A program made the translations under genes and the position numbers. Positions 2,357-63,889 of a stretch of DNA of 64,000 nucleotides are shown here, piece by piece. Position 1 is the first letter of the stretch. Every line of letters starts with the position of its first letter. The notes under the pieces were generated by a model, which did no database searches, was not told the DNA's origin, and was given only the letters and a program-made list of their open reading frames with translations. The stretch is from assembly GCA_951406725.2 (NCBI GenBank), contig OX597825.1, forward strand, positions 81,034,001 to 81,098,000. The letters are read 5' to 3'. This DNA comes from Octopus vulgaris. Lineage: Eukaryota.

Positions 2357-2605
2357 TGTGGAAAGGTGTGCCAATCAGTTGCAGGATTGAAAAGGCATGT
2401 GAAAAGGGTTCCTGCTGTGGCACCTGTTCCTTCTGCCAACCAGTACAGCTGTGCATTATGTAACAGGATGTGCAAAGCTTTGGCCGGGCTCAAGAGTCAT
2501 ACAAGGGACTCACGTAGCATCATCAATGACTCTTCATTTCAACGATTCTTCCTGGCAATGGTTTTGCTTCTATGCGAGAAAGCAGCTGCCAAGTATGTAT
2601 GTATG
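2356..2605 (+). mobile_element. 3' end of RTE-like LINE with two C2H2-type zinc-finger motifs and TATG tail
   Basis: CGKVCQSVAGLKRH...CALCNRMCKALAGLKSHTR, then a short 3' region and (TATG)n. Confidence 0.6.
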
Positions 2606-2612
2606 AATGTTA

Positions 2613-2962
2613 GTGAAGGCGAATGGCTCAGTGGTTAGAGCGTCGAACTTACGATCGTGAGGTTGTGAGTTCGATTCCCGGACCTGGCTGTATGTTGTAT
2701 TCTTGAGCAAGACACTTTATTTCATGTTGCTCCAGTTCACTCACCTATAGAAATGAGTTGTGATGTCACTGGTGCCAAGCTGTATCGGCCCCTTTGCCTC
2801 CCCCTTGGATAACATCAGTAGCATAGAGAGGGGTGGCTGGTATGCATAAGAACAACCCTAGGTTGTGCGTTCGCCGGTGAGACAACTTTCTGCCCAGACT
2901 TGTACCCCGGAGGGGAACATCTTACCTGCACTCATGGTCATTCGTGACCGACGGAGTCGATT
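2613..2962 (+). mobile_element. Near full-length tRNA-derived SINE (family D)
   Basis: Pol III A box TGGCTCAGTGG, B box GTTCGATTCC, then TTCTTGAGCAAGACACTT body and (TATG)n tail. Confidence 0.85.
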
Positions 2963-3501
2963 ATGTATGTATGTATGTATGTATGTATGTATGTATGTAT
3001 GTATGTATGTATGTATGTATGTATGTATGTATAATATTTTCATCTAAAAGGAGTTTCTGGTTATTACATCAGAATGCAAATATTAGAAGACACTCGCAGA
3101 CATTGTTTCATTTCTATCATACTGAAAGTTGCTATAAAGTAAAGCTAACCAATTGATTTTGCCATCCCAATGTATAAAAATATCTCGGCGAGAACATTGG
3201 AGACGGTGTGGATGCAAAATAACTAAATGTTGTCGACACATTTAGAATATTATTTTTAGAAAGAAAATCAAATCTAATTATAGCAATACATAGAGAACGG
3301 TTAATTAAACAGAGGAATATATGATTCAAAGATTTACACGCGATGCGCAAAGATTTTTTAATTAGAATATGAAATTCAAACATGAAGTGTTAAGAAACTG
3401 AGAAGTACAGGTTACATTCTGAGGAAACGACGACCACACACGCTCAGGAACAAAACACTATATATATATACATATTTATATATACATACATACATATATA
3501 T

Positions 3502-3563
<62 letters not shown>

Positions 3564-3566
<3 letters not shown>

Positions 3567-3718
3567 TTAAGTTAAGTTAATTATTTGGCTCCAAAAAGCA
3601 AGGCCATGTAGGGGGAGTTATGTACGGGGTTGTGTTCATGCAAAGAGTTCAGGCCATTTGTGGTCAAGGGAGACTTTGAACCGAGCGGTCGTCGGCATCT
3701 TCACTATCTCGTCCGGCA

Positions 3719-3720
<2 letters not shown>
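3564..3720 (-). mobile_element. CR1/L2-type LINE 3' end
   Basis: Minus strand reads LPDEIVKMPTTARFKVS/DHKWPELFA* (one frameshift), followed by a (TTAAC)n tail. Confidence 0.65.
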
Positions 3721-3756
<36 letters not shown>

Positions 3757-3856
3757 ATCATATGGTTCAAATTTACAGAAAACAAAATACGAAGAAGATA
3801 GGTGAGGGAACATCAAGCAAGTGTATTAGTTTGACGCTTGGGAAGAATGGAAACGT

Positions 3857-3892
3857 CTTTGGCGTTTCGAACCACCGCTCCTCGACAGAAAG
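3857..3892 (-). ncRNA. Degenerate minimal type I hammerhead motif in Penelope-like insert (A6U core)
   Basis: CUUU CUGUCGA G GAGC-GGUG-GUUC GAA ACGC C AAAG; same family as 62797-62832. Confidence 0.6.
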
Positions 3893-4581
3893 GGATAAGA
3901 GGAAAAATGGAGAGCACGAGGAAACGCATCACTCGGTATTGGTCTACCAAATTCCATCTCATGATGTTGGTCGGTCTGGGGCCGAAGTAGAAGACACTTA
4001 AGATACTTGTCGAAGATGCTAAGTGATTGAACTATACCCGAATCCATTTGGTTGCGAGGCGAGATTTTTAATCACAGACAGACTGCAAATATGAAGACAT
4101 ATTTGAAAAGTATAGGAAAAAAGAACAAAATAAACCATCCATTAACTTAAGTTGAATTGGAAAATAAAAAAAAAAAGCGAGAAATGGTGGCGTAAAGCAA
4201 TGAAGTACAACTTGCAATATAAGAGAGCAGAAGACAAACACGAACAACGCGGTGTACTCAGCAGGCCAACAGAAATGATATAACAAAACAAAGAGTAAGG
4301 AACTCCAAACCTAACACTAACAATAATAAGGTAGGAAATATGAGCGTAAGCGTAAGCGTAAGTGAATACTTGCACTAAGATAGAATCCGCGATATAAGAA
4401 ATGAAAGGAAAAAGTTAAGAGAGGAAAATTGTACAAATCGATGACGATCGATCAGTAAAATATCATATAACGGATAAAACTGCTCCCTAATCAAACAAGA
4501 TATTGATTACTGTCTTAGAAATGTTTACAAAATAAATAAAATGAAATACATCTTCAAACCAAACAATGCGCACCTACTTTA

Positions 4582-4585
<4 letters not shown>

Positions 4586-4628
<43 letters not shown>

Positions 4629-4746
4629 GTAGTAGTAGTAGTAGTAGTAGTAGTAAGCAGCAGTAGTAGTAGTTGTTGCTGTAGCGCTAGCAGTGGCTGT
4701 AGCGGTAATAGTAGCAGTAGTAGTAGTGGTAGTAGCAGCAGCAGCA

Positions 4747-4801
<55 letters not shown>

Positions 4802-4820
4802 TAGTAGTCGTAGTAGTAGT
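4586..4820. repeat. (ATT)n-(AGT)n-(AGC)n compound trinucleotide repeat
   Basis: Direct reading. Confidence 0.95.
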
Positions 4821-4821
4821 C

Positions 4822-5021
4822 ATTTCTACTATAATCACAAGGCTTGAAATTTGTGGGGAGGGGTTCGAGAGTCGACTCGAGTTTTTTGCTGATACTTATT
4901 TTATTGACCCCGAAAGGATGAAAAGCAAAGTCGTCCTCAGGGGAATTTGAACTCAGCACATAAAGACGAATGAAATACCGCTAAGCATTTTACCTGGCGA
5001 CTAACGGTTCGGCCAGCGCGA
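4822..5021 (-). mobile_element. SINE family B
   Basis: Family B core in reverse orientation. Confidence 0.85.
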
Positions 5022-5040
5022 CTTATCGTCATCATCATCA

Positions 5041-5167
<127 letters not shown>

Positions 5168-5180
5168 AGAGTTGTGGAAT

Positions 5181-5351
5181 GCAGAATCGTTAGATCGCCG
5201 GGCGATATACTTAGCGGTACTGCCTCCGTCGCTACGTTCTGAGTTCAAGTTCCGCTGAGGTCGACTTTGCTTTTCATCTTTTCGGAGTTTCATCCTTTTG
5301 GGGTTGATGTAATCGACTAGTCCCCTCCCCCAAAATGTCAGGCCTTGTGCC

Positions 5352-5352
<1 letters not shown>
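5181..5352 (+). mobile_element. SINE family B
   Basis: GTTCTGAGTTCAAGTTCCGCTGAGGTCGACTTTGCTTTTCATC core. Confidence 0.85.
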
Positions 5353-5395
<43 letters not shown>

Positions 5396-5537
5396 GATTG
5401 CTGTTTTCCATTGTATTTCAGCACGTGTGTTTGTATATTTGCATCTATGCGTGTCAGTAGGTGTACATTCTCCTCTATGGCATTTCAAATTGTTAAAAGT
5501 CATTCTATTCTATTTCATATTTCATGGAAACCATTTT

Positions 5538-5602
<65 letters not shown>

Positions 5603-6465
5603 AATCCATCGTGTGTTGGATTTCCCCGAAGATCACCTACTTTCAATTTCTATGCATCTTTTATATTTCTTTTTACAATTCTCCAAGTTTGCTTATCGAT
5701 GTTGCTATCTGTATTTCAGTTAATAATCGTGGTTCATCATTTGTTGGTTAATCTATTTCTAACTTTCTACGCATTACAATGTTTCGTTATTCATTTCCTT
5801 ATCTAACATTCTTTCTTTACATACTATACAAGCTATTGCAAAATATTTTATTAGCAGACGTTACAGCCTTTTGTTACATTGAGGTTGAGAGTCACTCTAA
5901 GTCTGCTTTATTTGTAATCTCTATTATTTCTCTGCTATCAAATACACTATACGAACTATCTATATTCTCTCCCTACCAATCACTGCATTTCTTTAGATTT
6001 ATTTATGTATTTCTATTAGATATTTTATGTTTCTGACTTCTCCTGTTTATCATCGTTTGTGTGTATATAGAATTTTTCTGCTTTACATTGTATGCATTGT
6101 TTTTTTCGGAGCAAGTATTTGTAGCCCCAACTATAGAGTCTATCATTTCATCCCTTTATTGATTTCAGTTACTGGACTGCAGCCATGCAAAAGTGCCACT
6201 CCTGGTGTTTATTTCAGAATAGCAGATACTCTGTCGATTTATGTTTATGGAATGGCTTAGTTCTAGAATTAAGTTCTGATTTGTGACATGATACCAAATT
6301 TTACATAAACTCATGGGCATAAACTCACATAAGACGTAAATACAAGCACACACAATCATAAACACGCGCGTGCACCAGCACACGCGCATACACACATACA
6401 CACAAACACACACACACGCACACACATATTCATATACACTCATGTATGAATTCAATATAAACTTG

Positions 6466-58556: not shown

Positions 58557-59097
58557 TATGTCCATCATTGAGAAGAGCAACGTCGAAATCACGTGATCTC
58601 GGCGCTGGAGGTAGCGGGAATTTGTCTCTCCACTAGTGATATAAACAATTGTGCATTTTGTTTCTCTCGTGGCATCTACCGCAGTATAGTTTGTTCTAAC
58701 AGAACAGCCACGTTTAAGTGGAGATAAACATTATCCCTCGGTGTTAAAACTGCCTCTGTCGCTAATAAATATTCTTTTTAACAAGTTCACTGGCTAATCG
58801 CGACACCAGCGCCTGTTCTGGTACTGTCAATCAATATATCGCTGGCGGGGATGAATTGTTGATACCTCCGGCGGTCGAGCGTCTATCATAGACGAGACCA
58901 AGGAAGGTCGAAATGACATGATCTGGTGGTCTCGGCGCTGGAAATGGCCGGGATTTATCTGCCCGCTAGCGATGTAAGCAATTGTGAATTTTGCACTAAA
59001 AGCCAATATGAGAATTTCTCTCATGGCAACAACTGCAGTATAACTTGTTCTAACAGAGCATCCACGATTAAGTGGGGATACATGTTACCTCTCGAGA
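58557..59097 (+). mobile_element. Diverged tandem repeat (325-nt period), each unit starting with a hammerhead motif
   Basis: Shared TCTCGGCGCTGGA, CAATTGTG, TTTCTCTC.TGGCA, GCAGTATA, TTGTTCTAACAGA, TTAAGTGG in both units. Confidence 0.75.
58883..58929 (+). ncRNA. Type I hammerhead motif (unit 2)
   Basis: CUAUCA UAGACGA GACC-AAGGAA-GGUC GAA AUGACAUGAU C UGGUGG; core positions 3-4 altered. Confidence 0.6.
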
Positions 59098-61116: not shown

Positions 61117-61246
61117 ATATATATATATACGTATATATATACCGGAGTAAACACATAAATGTGACACAAGGTGGAAAAAAGAGTACTCAAATACCAGTGG
61201 TAGAGTAATATGCTTTATTTAAAAGCAGCAGAACATTCAACAAAAC

Positions 61247-61284
61247 CTGTTACTCTGAGTTTCATGTTCCCGTTCGTCGGACAG
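61247..61284 (-). ncRNA. Minimal type I hammerhead motif (U4C), antisense copy
   Basis: CUGU CCGACGA ACG-GGAA-CAU GAA ACUCAGAGU A ACAG. Confidence 0.6.
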
Positions 61285-61307
61285 TTTTTCTAGAATTCTA
61301 GCAAAAA

Positions 61308-61345
61308 CTGTCCGACGAACGGGAACGTGAAACTCAGAGTAACAG
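61308..61345 (+). ncRNA. Minimal type I hammerhead motif (U4C)
   Basis: CUGU CCGACGA ACG-GGAA-CGU GAA ACUCAGAGU A ACAG; GNRA loop II. Confidence 0.72.
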
Positions 61346-61393
61346 ATTTTGTTGAATTTTCTGCTGTATATTTTAAATAAATACACACACACA

Positions 61394-62244: not shown

Positions 62245-62796
62245 AATTTAATGTACACATGAAGATACTAGCTACTGATAATTTTTTGATTGGATACGCG
62301 TGTCTAGGCAGGTTTTTGTAACACGTCTTGTGTCTTCAAGCAATTCTCAGGCTCTGAGCACATGGCCCATTCAATCTGATATCGGTGGTTTTGGGATATT
62401 CTTAGCAGAGAAATGTATGTTATATAAATCCATAACAGAGCGTAAATTGGTAGTGTAAACTTAGCTATCACGCGAAAACTATTGGAGATTAGGAATTCGA
62501 AGTAGAAAACTACGTGTTGGAAGTATATAATTAACTGTTCGTTTGAGACAAGATGACCAAAAAAGTAGTCCATTCAATGAGACATAAATATCATTTAATG
62601 TACACAGCAGCTCGGATCTTTATTCTGTCTACTTTAAACGAAATTTATATTTCACTGGATGAAGCACTTATTTGTCGATTTTCTTTTAACAGAACATTAA
62701 ACTATATATATAAACACACACATATATATATGCGTATACATATATCCATATAAATATATATACACACATTTTCTCTCCTTGTTTCTTTCTGTGTTC

Positions 62797-62832
62797 CTTT
62801 CTGTGGAAGAGCGTAGGCTCGAAACGTTAAAG
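62797..62832 (+). ncRNA. Minimal type I hammerhead motif (A6U core)
   Basis: CUUU CUGUGGA A GAGC-GUAG-GCUC GAA ACGU U AAAG. Confidence 0.68.
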
Positions 62833-62978
62833 ACTTTTTCACTTCCCGAGCGTTATACTAATACATCTGTTTGTTTTGTACACCACCTGTCTTCGTCTTT
62901 CGGTTTTTTGTGAATTCTCCCTATATACATATGTATATACACAATATATAAGCATATATATACGTACATACACATATA

Positions 62979-63026
<48 letters not shown>

Positions 63027-63035
63027 TATATAGCT

Positions 63036-63203
63036 TTTAGCCAACACATAGATACTTGCGCCAACAAAAAAACACCAAACTTCAGAATTTTCCCCCTCTA
63101 CCAATTTAGGGACGATACAACCTCGAGACAACGAATAAGTAAAGAAAATCTCTTTATTATAAAATACAGGCGACTTCTTAACGGGTCTACGACAAACAAT
63201 TAA
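63036..63203 (+). pseudogene. Penelope-like element GIY-YIG endonuclease C-terminal fragment
   Basis: Open frame without ATG: FSQHIDTCANKKTPNFRIFPLYQFRDDTTSRQRISKENLFIIKYRRLLNGSTTNN*, matching the PLE H...C....F.I.P.......R...E..FI.K....LN pattern. Confidence 0.75.
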
Positions 63204-63755
63204 TATACCTCAACTTAAGAATAAAAGAAATATATATACACACACAAATATTACATTCCATAGAATCCATTACTAATCGCCCCATCACAGCTATATCTTC
63301 ACCCATTCATATTCTCCCTTCTCTGTTTTTTTCTTCTTCTTCCTCTTCTTCTTCTTCATCATCATCATTATCATCATCATCGTCGTCATCGTCATCACCA
63401 CCATCATCATCGTCATCTTCTCCTTCTCCTTCTTCTTCTTCATCGTCATCATCATCGGCACCGTCATCTTCTTCTTCTTCTTCTACTTCTCCACCTTCTA
63501 CCCCTTAACCTTGTCACTAATGTCTTTAAGTATAACGCCTACGCAGCGACTGCCGGTCGCCACTGACCAGCCCAGATTTTCCCACTCCCACCCCCTCAAG
63601 AACTCACAACGACCTCGAATACACAAGTGCAAACAAGGGAGTCAGAGAAAGGCAGAATGCCACCTATATCTGAACACTACTATGGAAGTATTCCTTTAAA
63701 AAAACCTTTCTTCTAATTTTTCTAAATTTTTCTAAATTTAATTATTTAATCGTTA

Positions 63756-63793
63756 CAGTTGAAAAGGTCTCAAAATGACCGAAACCGGTACTG
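63756..63793 (+). ncRNA. Minimal type I hammerhead ribozyme with compensatory U3-A8 core
   Basis: CAG UUGAAAA GGUC-UCAAAAU-GACC GAA ACCGGU A CUG; stem I extends via AAUC/GAUU; predicted cleavage after 63790. Confidence 0.8.
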
Positions 63794-63842
63794 AAAGATT
63801 CACTATAAAATCATCTTAGCATTTTCTATTTTTGACTTGTTT

Positions 63843-63889
<47 letters not shown>

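Follow-up and report, generated by a model that had tools for sequence, protein, structure and literature searches.

The insert at 63030-63848 on the forward strand of the window (the whole 64-kb stretch of octopus DNA analysed here) is an ordinary 5'-truncated copy of a young, recently active Neptune-like Penelope-like element (PLE) in a (TA)n target. To judge from sequence patterns at the junction of two overlapping frames, the family of this copy very probably carries a well-supported -1 frameshift site, through which an upstream frame, ORF1, would be joined to the frame for reverse transcriptase (RT) and endonuclease (EN). The hammerhead with a U3-A8 pair that a preliminary description of this DNA had flagged is real but ordinary and already published. 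A truncated Neptune-like copy, a U3-A8 hammerhead predicted to act only as a dimer, and a family-level -1 frameshift likely stimulated by a stop codon together form an explanation that we moderately favour.

The window copy and its family

Over its whole length (Table 1), the window copy is 98.9% identical to the full-length copy L044. The preliminary description had reported an ATG-less open frame resembling the end of a PLE GIY-YIG domain, a hammerhead as written there on the same strand, and flanking (TA)n tracts, and all three were recovered. No stop interrupts the frame between the (TA)n tract and a TAA at 63201-63203. In tblastn searches its peptide matches residues 729-785 of the family RT-EN frame (98%), whose version in L044 gives RVT_1 and GIY-YIG, and the hammerhead lies 553 nt past the frame stop. 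An ATG is indeed missing from the window copy, but only because this copy is truncated at its 5' end. Among 120 homologues, the finger His of the tail is conserved in 116, its Glu in 114 and its Asn in 114; a Pro-to-Arg change at 63172 is private to the window copy, and the 55-aa fragment alone was without a match in a Pfam search. The low-complexity tract of the 3' UTR occupies the same place in L044 and is spanned by genomic matches, which rules out a separate insertion. In all likelihood, the window copy would have arisen by incomplete target-primed reverse transcription that terminated early.

Table 1. Features of the truncated element and its hammerhead in the window
Feature	Position	Strand	Basis or remark
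(TA)n target tract, left	62982..63029	.	sequence
Neptune-like PLE, 5'-truncated	63030..63848	+	final ~820 nt of 4.24-kb unit
RT-GIY-YIG frame tail	63030..63203	+	last 57 codons and stop; second His of CCHH finger, conserved Glu and Asn present
(TCA/TCT/TCG)n low-complexity tract	63310..63510	+	inside element 3' UTR; repeat family D1
Minimal type I hammerhead in 3' pseudo-LTR	63756..63793	+	descriptor scan, folding, family matches
Stem I	63756-58/63791-93	+	CAG/CUG
Hammerhead core UUGAAAA	63759-65	+	U3 at 63759, A8 at 63764
Stem II (4 bp)	63766-80	+	followed by GAA at 63781-83
Palindromic stem III ACCGGU	63784-89	+	predicted cleavage after A17 at 63790
Family-wide 3' terminus	63794..63848	+	ends in internal (AT)n microhomology; in tandem copies runs on into ORF1 leader
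(TA)n target tract, right	63849..63886	.	sequence

A search of the animal's own genome (G000, 2.8 Gb) gave 3297 candidates, of which the best 40, including the window itself, were scored. Peptide and hammerhead occur together in all 39 others, over 799-814 of 814 nt and at 95-99% identity; the ribozyme is thus tied to a Penelope parent, as had been proposed. Thirty fetched loci share one common 3' end, directly followed by ATATA[T/C]A in 29 and by a further tail of ~30 nt in six, and their 5' ends vary from 0 to more than 1500 nt further upstream. The linkage in the scored copies and the common 3' end rule out that the hammerhead is an independent insertion. A non-LTR retrozyme is likewise ruled out, as the single dispersed copy forms one unit with the RT-EN frame that an autonomous family encodes.

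Upstream of the point where the window copy starts, longer copies continue the frame as RT, Cys linker and GIY-YIG. Searched against Pfam, the whole L044 frame yields RVT_1 (E 4e-8) and GIY-YIG (E 0.0012; 19.5 bits, under the cut-off of 22.6), with the RT at residues 264-451 and GIY-YIG at 689-776. This order excludes Naiad and Chlamys, whose endonuclease is N-terminal to the RT. An uninterrupted RT-EN frame of 784-785 aa is present in about 49 of 150 scored copies (counted by eye). The cysteines of a CX4CxxC linker between RT and EN occur in 120/120 homologues, and the CCHH residues of the GIY-YIG finger in 116-118 of 120. Two ribozyme-bearing direct repeats lie 4238 bp apart in L044, and an inverted 5' repeat or pair was seen in L038-L041, L043 and many other copies. 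The family thus shows the features of EN+ PLEs: a telomerase-like RT and a GIY-YIG domain with CCHH, pseudo-LTRs, inverted 5' copies, 5' truncation and an optional tail.

According to PMC8557442, a CX2-5CxxC linker with long spacing to the GIY cysteine occurs in Neptune, whereas the spacing is short in Nematis and the linker is absent in Penelope and Poseidon. The spacing of 24 residues found here is like Neptune and unlike the Nematis rows of its supplementary Fig. S2 (compared by eye). The Neptune clade also shares the domain order with a C-terminal GIY-YIG, the pseudo-LTRs, inverted 5' copies and optional tail, and the (TA)n target (PMC8557442). The RT trees here were built from the loci of this analysis alone. 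The label is "Neptune-like" because two overlapping frames are present where canonical EN+ PLEs have a single ORF (PMC8557442); a killifish Neptune has two ORFs that, unlike those here, do not overlap (PMC12602865).

The same genome contains a second active Neptune-like family (the sister family, L112-L141) with 58% RT identity to the family of the window copy. It has kept an ATG in the linker, has two extra bases in stem II before GAA and a long (TG/TA)n 3' UTR, and several of its copies differ by one base in a C- or T-run at the ORF1/RT junction. PLE sequences filed under bacterial MAGs or symbiont genomes (L252-L268, P0027, P0065, P0069, P0070, P0080, P0100) are most likely host DNA in the bins.

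The hammerhead and its 3-8 pair

A relaxed hammerhead descriptor returned eight rows in the 64-kb window, and the motif of Table 1 is the sole one with zero mismatches. It has the parts of a minimal type I PLE hammerhead, namely a core with a 3-8 pair, GAAA, UH and G10.1-C11.1. Rfam gave no match at the gathering score in the window; Hammerhead_HH9 reached only 22.9 bits (E 0.021; cut-off 52), and in the E-value mode microsatellites matching miRNA models crowded out other results. Three further places in the window drew attention. A 64-nt inverted repeat at 61226-61366, which resembles two pseudo-LTR ends from another PLE family placed head to head, carries in its right arm a second, unrelated hammerhead-like motif with a U4C change (61308-61345). 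A repeat between (TA)n tracts at 62790-62915, found by eye and missed by the scan, is hammerhead-like (4-bp stem II, GAA, ACGU palindrome) with an atypical core, and a weak row at 58883-58929, its 3-8 position unpaired, probably belongs to another repeat or is due to chance.

Within the family, a 34-nt pattern, exact except that any base was allowed at positions 3 and 8, had 1865 genomic matches (reversed control, 0), of which 1856 (99.5%) are U3-A8. Five of the rest lack U3 (C-A in three, G-A and C-G in one each) and four have U3 without A8 (G in two, C in two). UUGAAAA is intact in 28 of the 30 fetched loci, one lacking an A and one reading CUGAAGA. It is therefore the family state, and copy-specific decay of U3 and A8 is ruled out. 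The single-change rates would predict ~0.006 C3-G8 copies among the 1865, and one exists (L026 = L035 = L271, G000:C13:524780-524813). Apart from three more private changes it looks like any other member; it could have arisen by reversion or by conversion from another family, or could be a minor master copy.

In the predicted monomer fold the palindrome of stem III is unpaired; in the predicted cofold it pairs intermolecularly (-22.9 versus 2 x -9.1 kcal/mol). Cleavage would thus require two copies held together by the palindrome, and would probably be weak, dimeric and protein-assisted. Predicted folds also pair U3 with A17 at the cleavage site, which could lower hammerhead activity. A short ATG-started frame at 63773-63817 opens within the ribozyme, in stem-loop II, and reads across the position of predicted cleavage. 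It is also present in the 5' repeat of L044, so that in tandem copies it sits upstream of ORF1; the main ORF of an Anolis element starts at a similar place (PMC11167929).

The preliminary description had taken the double change at positions 3 and 8 as a sign of selection for catalysis. Fixation of UUGAAAA within the family is no proof of this, since copies 95-99% identical form a young family and founder effect suffices; the argument from fixation was therefore rejected. The comparison across families does point to selection on the pair. The sister family has a hammerhead that differs in its stems, N7 and H17 but shares the palindrome; of 19 motifs, 17 are U3-A8 and two are U3-G8. Its exact motif had 682 matches, and U3-A8 was found in 100/100 among the matches listed. 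A scan of 101 PLE loci, mostly from metagenome and MAG contigs and with no pairing required at 3-8, gave a motif in 41 loci. After correction of one mis-pick, the 33 distinct motifs comprise 22 C-G, nine U-A, one G-C, one U-G and no mismatch; shuffled loci gave a motif in 6 of 1010 cases, one of them paired. On an RT tree of 31 rows (hand-checked labels, one row per distinct motif; L271, which has no RT, and L272, of the same family as L273, omitted), the U-A state needs seven changes, at least four of them forced by strong branches. Because all 33 distinct motifs are Watson-Crick or wobble despite repeated swaps, the 3-8 pair is maintained, with recurrent exchanges, across PLE families, and selection on the fold would most likely be what keeps it. 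As side observations, the hammerheads of the ORF1-bearing clade (L178, L179, L180, L254, L258) tend to 6-nt palindromes with an unpaired base on each side of stem II; the other PLE rows, unlike these, have 4-nt palindromes.

The novelty that the preliminary description implied for a U3-A8 hammerhead did not hold. The variant and a descriptor for it were published in 2014, with ~1,300 U3-A8 matches in Schistosoma PLEs (PMC4209133), and natural U3-A8 covariation was described in 2011, with earlier in vitro activity (PMC3088659). The Cercyon elements of Schistosoma mansoni share a type I minimal hammerhead in the pseudo-LTR, U3-A8 for C3-G8, G10.1-C11.1, a small palindromic stem III implying a dimer, and mostly single truncated copies (PMC4209133). 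Unlike Cercyon, the octopus family has a 4-bp stem II, no extra base after A9, a homogeneous core (99.5%), and an A at H17 that is pairable with U3. The PAc Poseidon element of Anolis has a pseudo-LTR hammerhead with a tested 3-8 pair, AT-rich targets and two 3' ends (a tail); it differs in having a single ORF that starts inside the ribozyme, a C3-G8 core and membership of a clade without the Cys linker (PMC11167929).

The family hammerhead might instead be a weak or dead relic, in which U3-A8 is an old accident spread by founder effects and the core is blocked by U3-A17. The youth of the family, which makes the fixation of U3-A8 uninformative, and the predicted U3-A17 pairing agree with this. 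Metazoan minimal hammerheads cleave weakly in vitro (PMC4209133), and the Anolis PLE hammerhead needs protein; its assay gave no reads ending at the cut site, and mutants were without effect on insertion in vitro, so that cleavage was unneeded there (PMC11167929). A relic is nevertheless rather improbable: the rest of the core is intact, as are G10.1-C11.1 and the palindromic stem III; 33/33 distinct motifs retain the 3-8 pair despite repeated swaps; and the sister family altered its stems yet kept core and palindrome.

A probable -1 frameshift site between ORF1 and the RT-EN frame

L044 carries two overlapping frames: ORF1, 411 aa long, occupies 2592-3827, and the RT-EN frame, in -1 phase to it, occupies 3761-6118. 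No Met occurs in the RT-EN frame before residue 69, which lies past a conserved NLS...GLKFTP motif (about residues 37-61), and within the overlap the heptamer U_UUU_UUA lies at 3788-3794 in the phase of ORF1. Among 49 fetched copies, 46 agree exactly at the junction, and its sequence is matched without a difference at 132 places in the genome. Among the 101 PLE loci, the NLS...GLKFTP motif was found in 33, of which 13 have T6A or T6G in ORF1 phase; L142, L154 (a third family) and L187, whose junctions are decayed, were excluded from the 13. RT identity of these loci to L044 is 33-58%, and they represent ~10 families. Where ORF1 homology is detectable, the in-phase heptamer is present in nine of ten loci, the tenth being decayed. 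Eight of the 13 have no Met up to the NLS...GLKFTP motif, and two relatives (L112, L192) retain a linker ATG. In 13/13 the -1 frame stays open between heptamer and stop, and in four it closes 0-1 codons upstream of the run. Consistently, a residue that NNU cannot encode precedes Phe-Leu in only one of 68 proteins, against a background of 20%, as U_UUU_UUR requires.

Of the canonical signals for -1 frameshifting, an in-phase X_XXY_YYZ in a -1 overlap was thus found, and a stimulatory stem-loop or pseudoknot 5-9 nt downstream was not. The 78 nt downstream of the L044 heptamer showed no structure (MFE -0.7, z +0.9). No stimulatory RNA structure shared among the 13 loci was found; a hairpin better than all 40 shuffles occurs in two (L172, L192), and in a crude, local scan a pseudoknot reached p 0.05 in one. 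Assembled contigs from eight runs (seven presumed RNA, one unclear) contained no GT-AG joint at the junction and several span it unspliced; contigs cannot show absence, and this observation was given no weight.

An AlphaFold model of the ORF1 protein (mean pLDDT 61.5) has long helices as far as residue 243, followed by a tail that is disordered. No Pfam family is common to eight aligned members, and neither an Atlas match of at least 0.9 nor a Foldseek match at E <=0.001 was found. The ORF1 homologues P0132, P0133, P0194, P0216, P0226 and P0236 end in Phe-Arg plus ~10-11 residues instead of Phe-Leu, which may reflect one-base run errors or a different shift motif.

Athena and Terminon elements join a helical or coiled-coil ORF1 to a PLE RT by -1 frameshifting at a U6-purine heptamer; they are endonuclease-deficient telomeric elements with a pseudoknot. 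In contrast, the elements studied here have an endonuclease and no shared structure, and their ORF1 stop lies at multiples of 10 codons. In the literature searched, no description of a frameshift in EN+ PLEs was found; coverage is thin for subscription papers and Repbase, so a prior mention is possible. The available portions of PMC3846280, PMC5408684, PMC5009743, PMC7618472, PMC8915115 and bioRxiv 10.64898/2026.07.22.740005 contain nothing on a Neptune frameshift.

Distance from the heptamer to the ORF1 stop

From the UUR codon to the ORF1 stop, the 13 DNA loci count 10, 11, 17, 10, 12, 10, 12, 20, 10, 10, 10, 10 and 19 codons. Shuffled DNA loci give P(=10) of 0.02-0.04 and P(<10) of 0.32-0.57. 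Word-index searches for ORF1 returned just 2-3 homologues; a profile from eight ORF1 sequences led to 1069 cluster representatives (50% identity), of which the best 150 were analysed. Phe-Leu lies within the last 60 residues in 94 of these best 150, a count from a profile that included the Phe-Leu columns and tails of its eight seeds and may favour Phe-Leu proteins. In the long-tailed subset (at least 60 residues past the conserved core; 109/150), Phe-Leu is near the end in 78 and absent there in 31. This set shows Phe-Leu and not codons, and at least two of its proteins (P0123, P0244) overlap the DNA set.

Among the 78, the spacing from Phe-Leu to the stop is exactly 10 in 27 and shorter than 10 in one, where a geometric null predicts ~35; none falls at 7-9. 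Further steps occur at 20-22 (12 proteins, versus two at 17-19) and at 30-32 (seven, versus two at 27-29). The two steps together, 19 versus 4, give a binomial p of 0.0013, for windows set after viewing the data and among related sequences. Spacings outside the bins 10, 20-22 and 30-32 account for 32 of the 78. The 26 rows in the 10 state cluster on the ORF1 tree (11 changes; 0/500 shuffles as low), so that this spacing may be an ancestral length kept for another reason. The 20-22 state is scattered (11 changes for 12 rows, at least eight forced), and the 30-32 state needs five changes, at least two of them forced. The sequence of the 10-residue tails is unconserved (9.6% identity).

The position of the stop agrees with a model in which a queue of ribosomes behind a terminating one stimulates -1 frameshifting, a reading of the spacings that we put close to, or a little below, an even chance. 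An 80S ribosome has a footprint of ~30 nt, and a spacing of 10 codons would place the trailing ribosome, one ribosome length upstream, on the heptamer. Spacings of 20 and 30 codons would put the third or fourth queued ribosome there. A stop closer than one ribosome length would hide the heptamer, so that shorter spacings would fail. That a trailing ribosome, while on the heptamer, collides with the one terminating at the ORF1 stop and slips -1 would be about an even bet.

Within the literature examined, collision-stimulated -1 frameshifting has been shown only in engineered E. coli reporters, where a ribosome stalled at a slow stop raised the -1 slippage of the trailing ribosome with a peak at a 9-codon spacer (PMC6815119). 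Both systems combine a slippery heptamer upstream of a stop, no RNA stimulator and an optimum of one ribosome length. They differ in that the reporters are bacterial and engineered with a 9-codon optimum, whereas the elements here are natural and eukaryotic with a 10-codon mode, known from sequence only. No natural gene with a terminating ribosome as the -1 stimulator was described in the literature searched.

Alternative readings of the junction

The frameshift could be real and yet be conventionally stimulated, by a distant or protein-bound RNA element, or it could reflect the intrinsic slipperiness of U_UUU_UUA, with the 10-codon spacing being inherited or a minimum distance at which a terminating ribosome does not mask the site. 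The clustering of the 10-codon state on the ORF1 tree and the hairpins in L172 and L192 are in line with this. For some type of PLE, the legend of Fig. 1 in PMC8557442 names an ORF1 frameshift accompanied by a pseudoknot, and the stop position in SARS-CoV-2 acts via pseudoknot refolding (PMC8168617). However, structure is lacking in the family of the window copy and in 11 of the 13 loci, and the exact length is kept although the ten residues have so little identity. A simple minimum distance does not predict the steps at 20-22 and 30-32, which arose repeatedly. We regard conventional or intrinsic stimulation as a serious but unlikely alternative to stimulation by queued ribosomes.

Readings that dispense with a ribosomal frameshift fare worse. 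RT-EN might be made as a separate protein, by termination-reinitiation or by near-cognate initiation at an AUA, replaced by AUG in the sister family, that shares bases with the ORF1 stop. This AUA stands where L112 has its ATG and near several predicted homologue starts. Yet the eight loci without a Met before the motif, the openness of the -1 frame from heptamer to stop in all 13 with closure just upstream in four, the invariant phase of the heptamer, and the continued activity of the family without an ATG make separate initiation very improbable. Least probable of all, with hardly any weight, is that the U-run and an AG form a splice acceptor joining the RT frame to an upstream exon, or that RNA polymerase stutters on U6. 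Nine of the 13 loci do read UUUUUUAG, and introns are known in PLEs (PMC4209133). But a splice acceptor is hard to reconcile with the other four, where the run is not followed by AG; the upstream sequence yielded no strong donor, and neither process would fix the codon phase of the run or its distance to the stop. Frameshifting by ribosomes on the heptamer thus remains the preferred reading.

Proposed life cycle and implications

RNA of tandem copies would be translated from the ORF1 ATG, and most ribosomes would end at the ORF1 stop, giving the ORF1 protein. It is highly probable that a minority would slip -1 at U_UUU_UUA and make an ORF1-RT-EN fusion, and the majority an ORF1 protein that is helical and ends in a disordered tail. 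(TA)n DNA would be nicked by the fusion, and reverse transcription would begin within the RNA, a short way beyond the ribozyme. If the Anolis element is a guide, this start point would result in a common 3' end and an optional tail. The window copy lacks ORF1 and the junction, and the steps of frameshifting and collision therefore concern the family and not this copy.

By itself, the U3-A8 hammerhead matters little, except that the natural C3-G8 copy and the copies with single changes mirror the U3C, A8G and double mutants that the preliminary description had proposed for cleavage assays. ORF1 defines a protein family without a Pfam match. The functional enzyme is probably an ORF1-RT-EN fusion of ~1,170 aa, which would be missed by annotation of, and in vitro work on, Neptune-like elements. 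The idea that a large clade of EN+ PLEs (>1000 ORF1 clusters) uses a natural structure-free signal, made up of U_UUU_UUR and a stop one to three ribosome lengths downstream, is tentative and falls somewhat short of an even chance on the sequence patterns. If true, the stop-spaced slippery site would be a natural counterpart of the collision effects known from engineered reporters, and the ORF1 set of PLEs offers natural spacings by the dozen, independent of one another and sharply peaked at 10 codons. If the terminating ribosome is the roadblock, the output of reverse transcriptase would rise with the ribosome load on the RNA.
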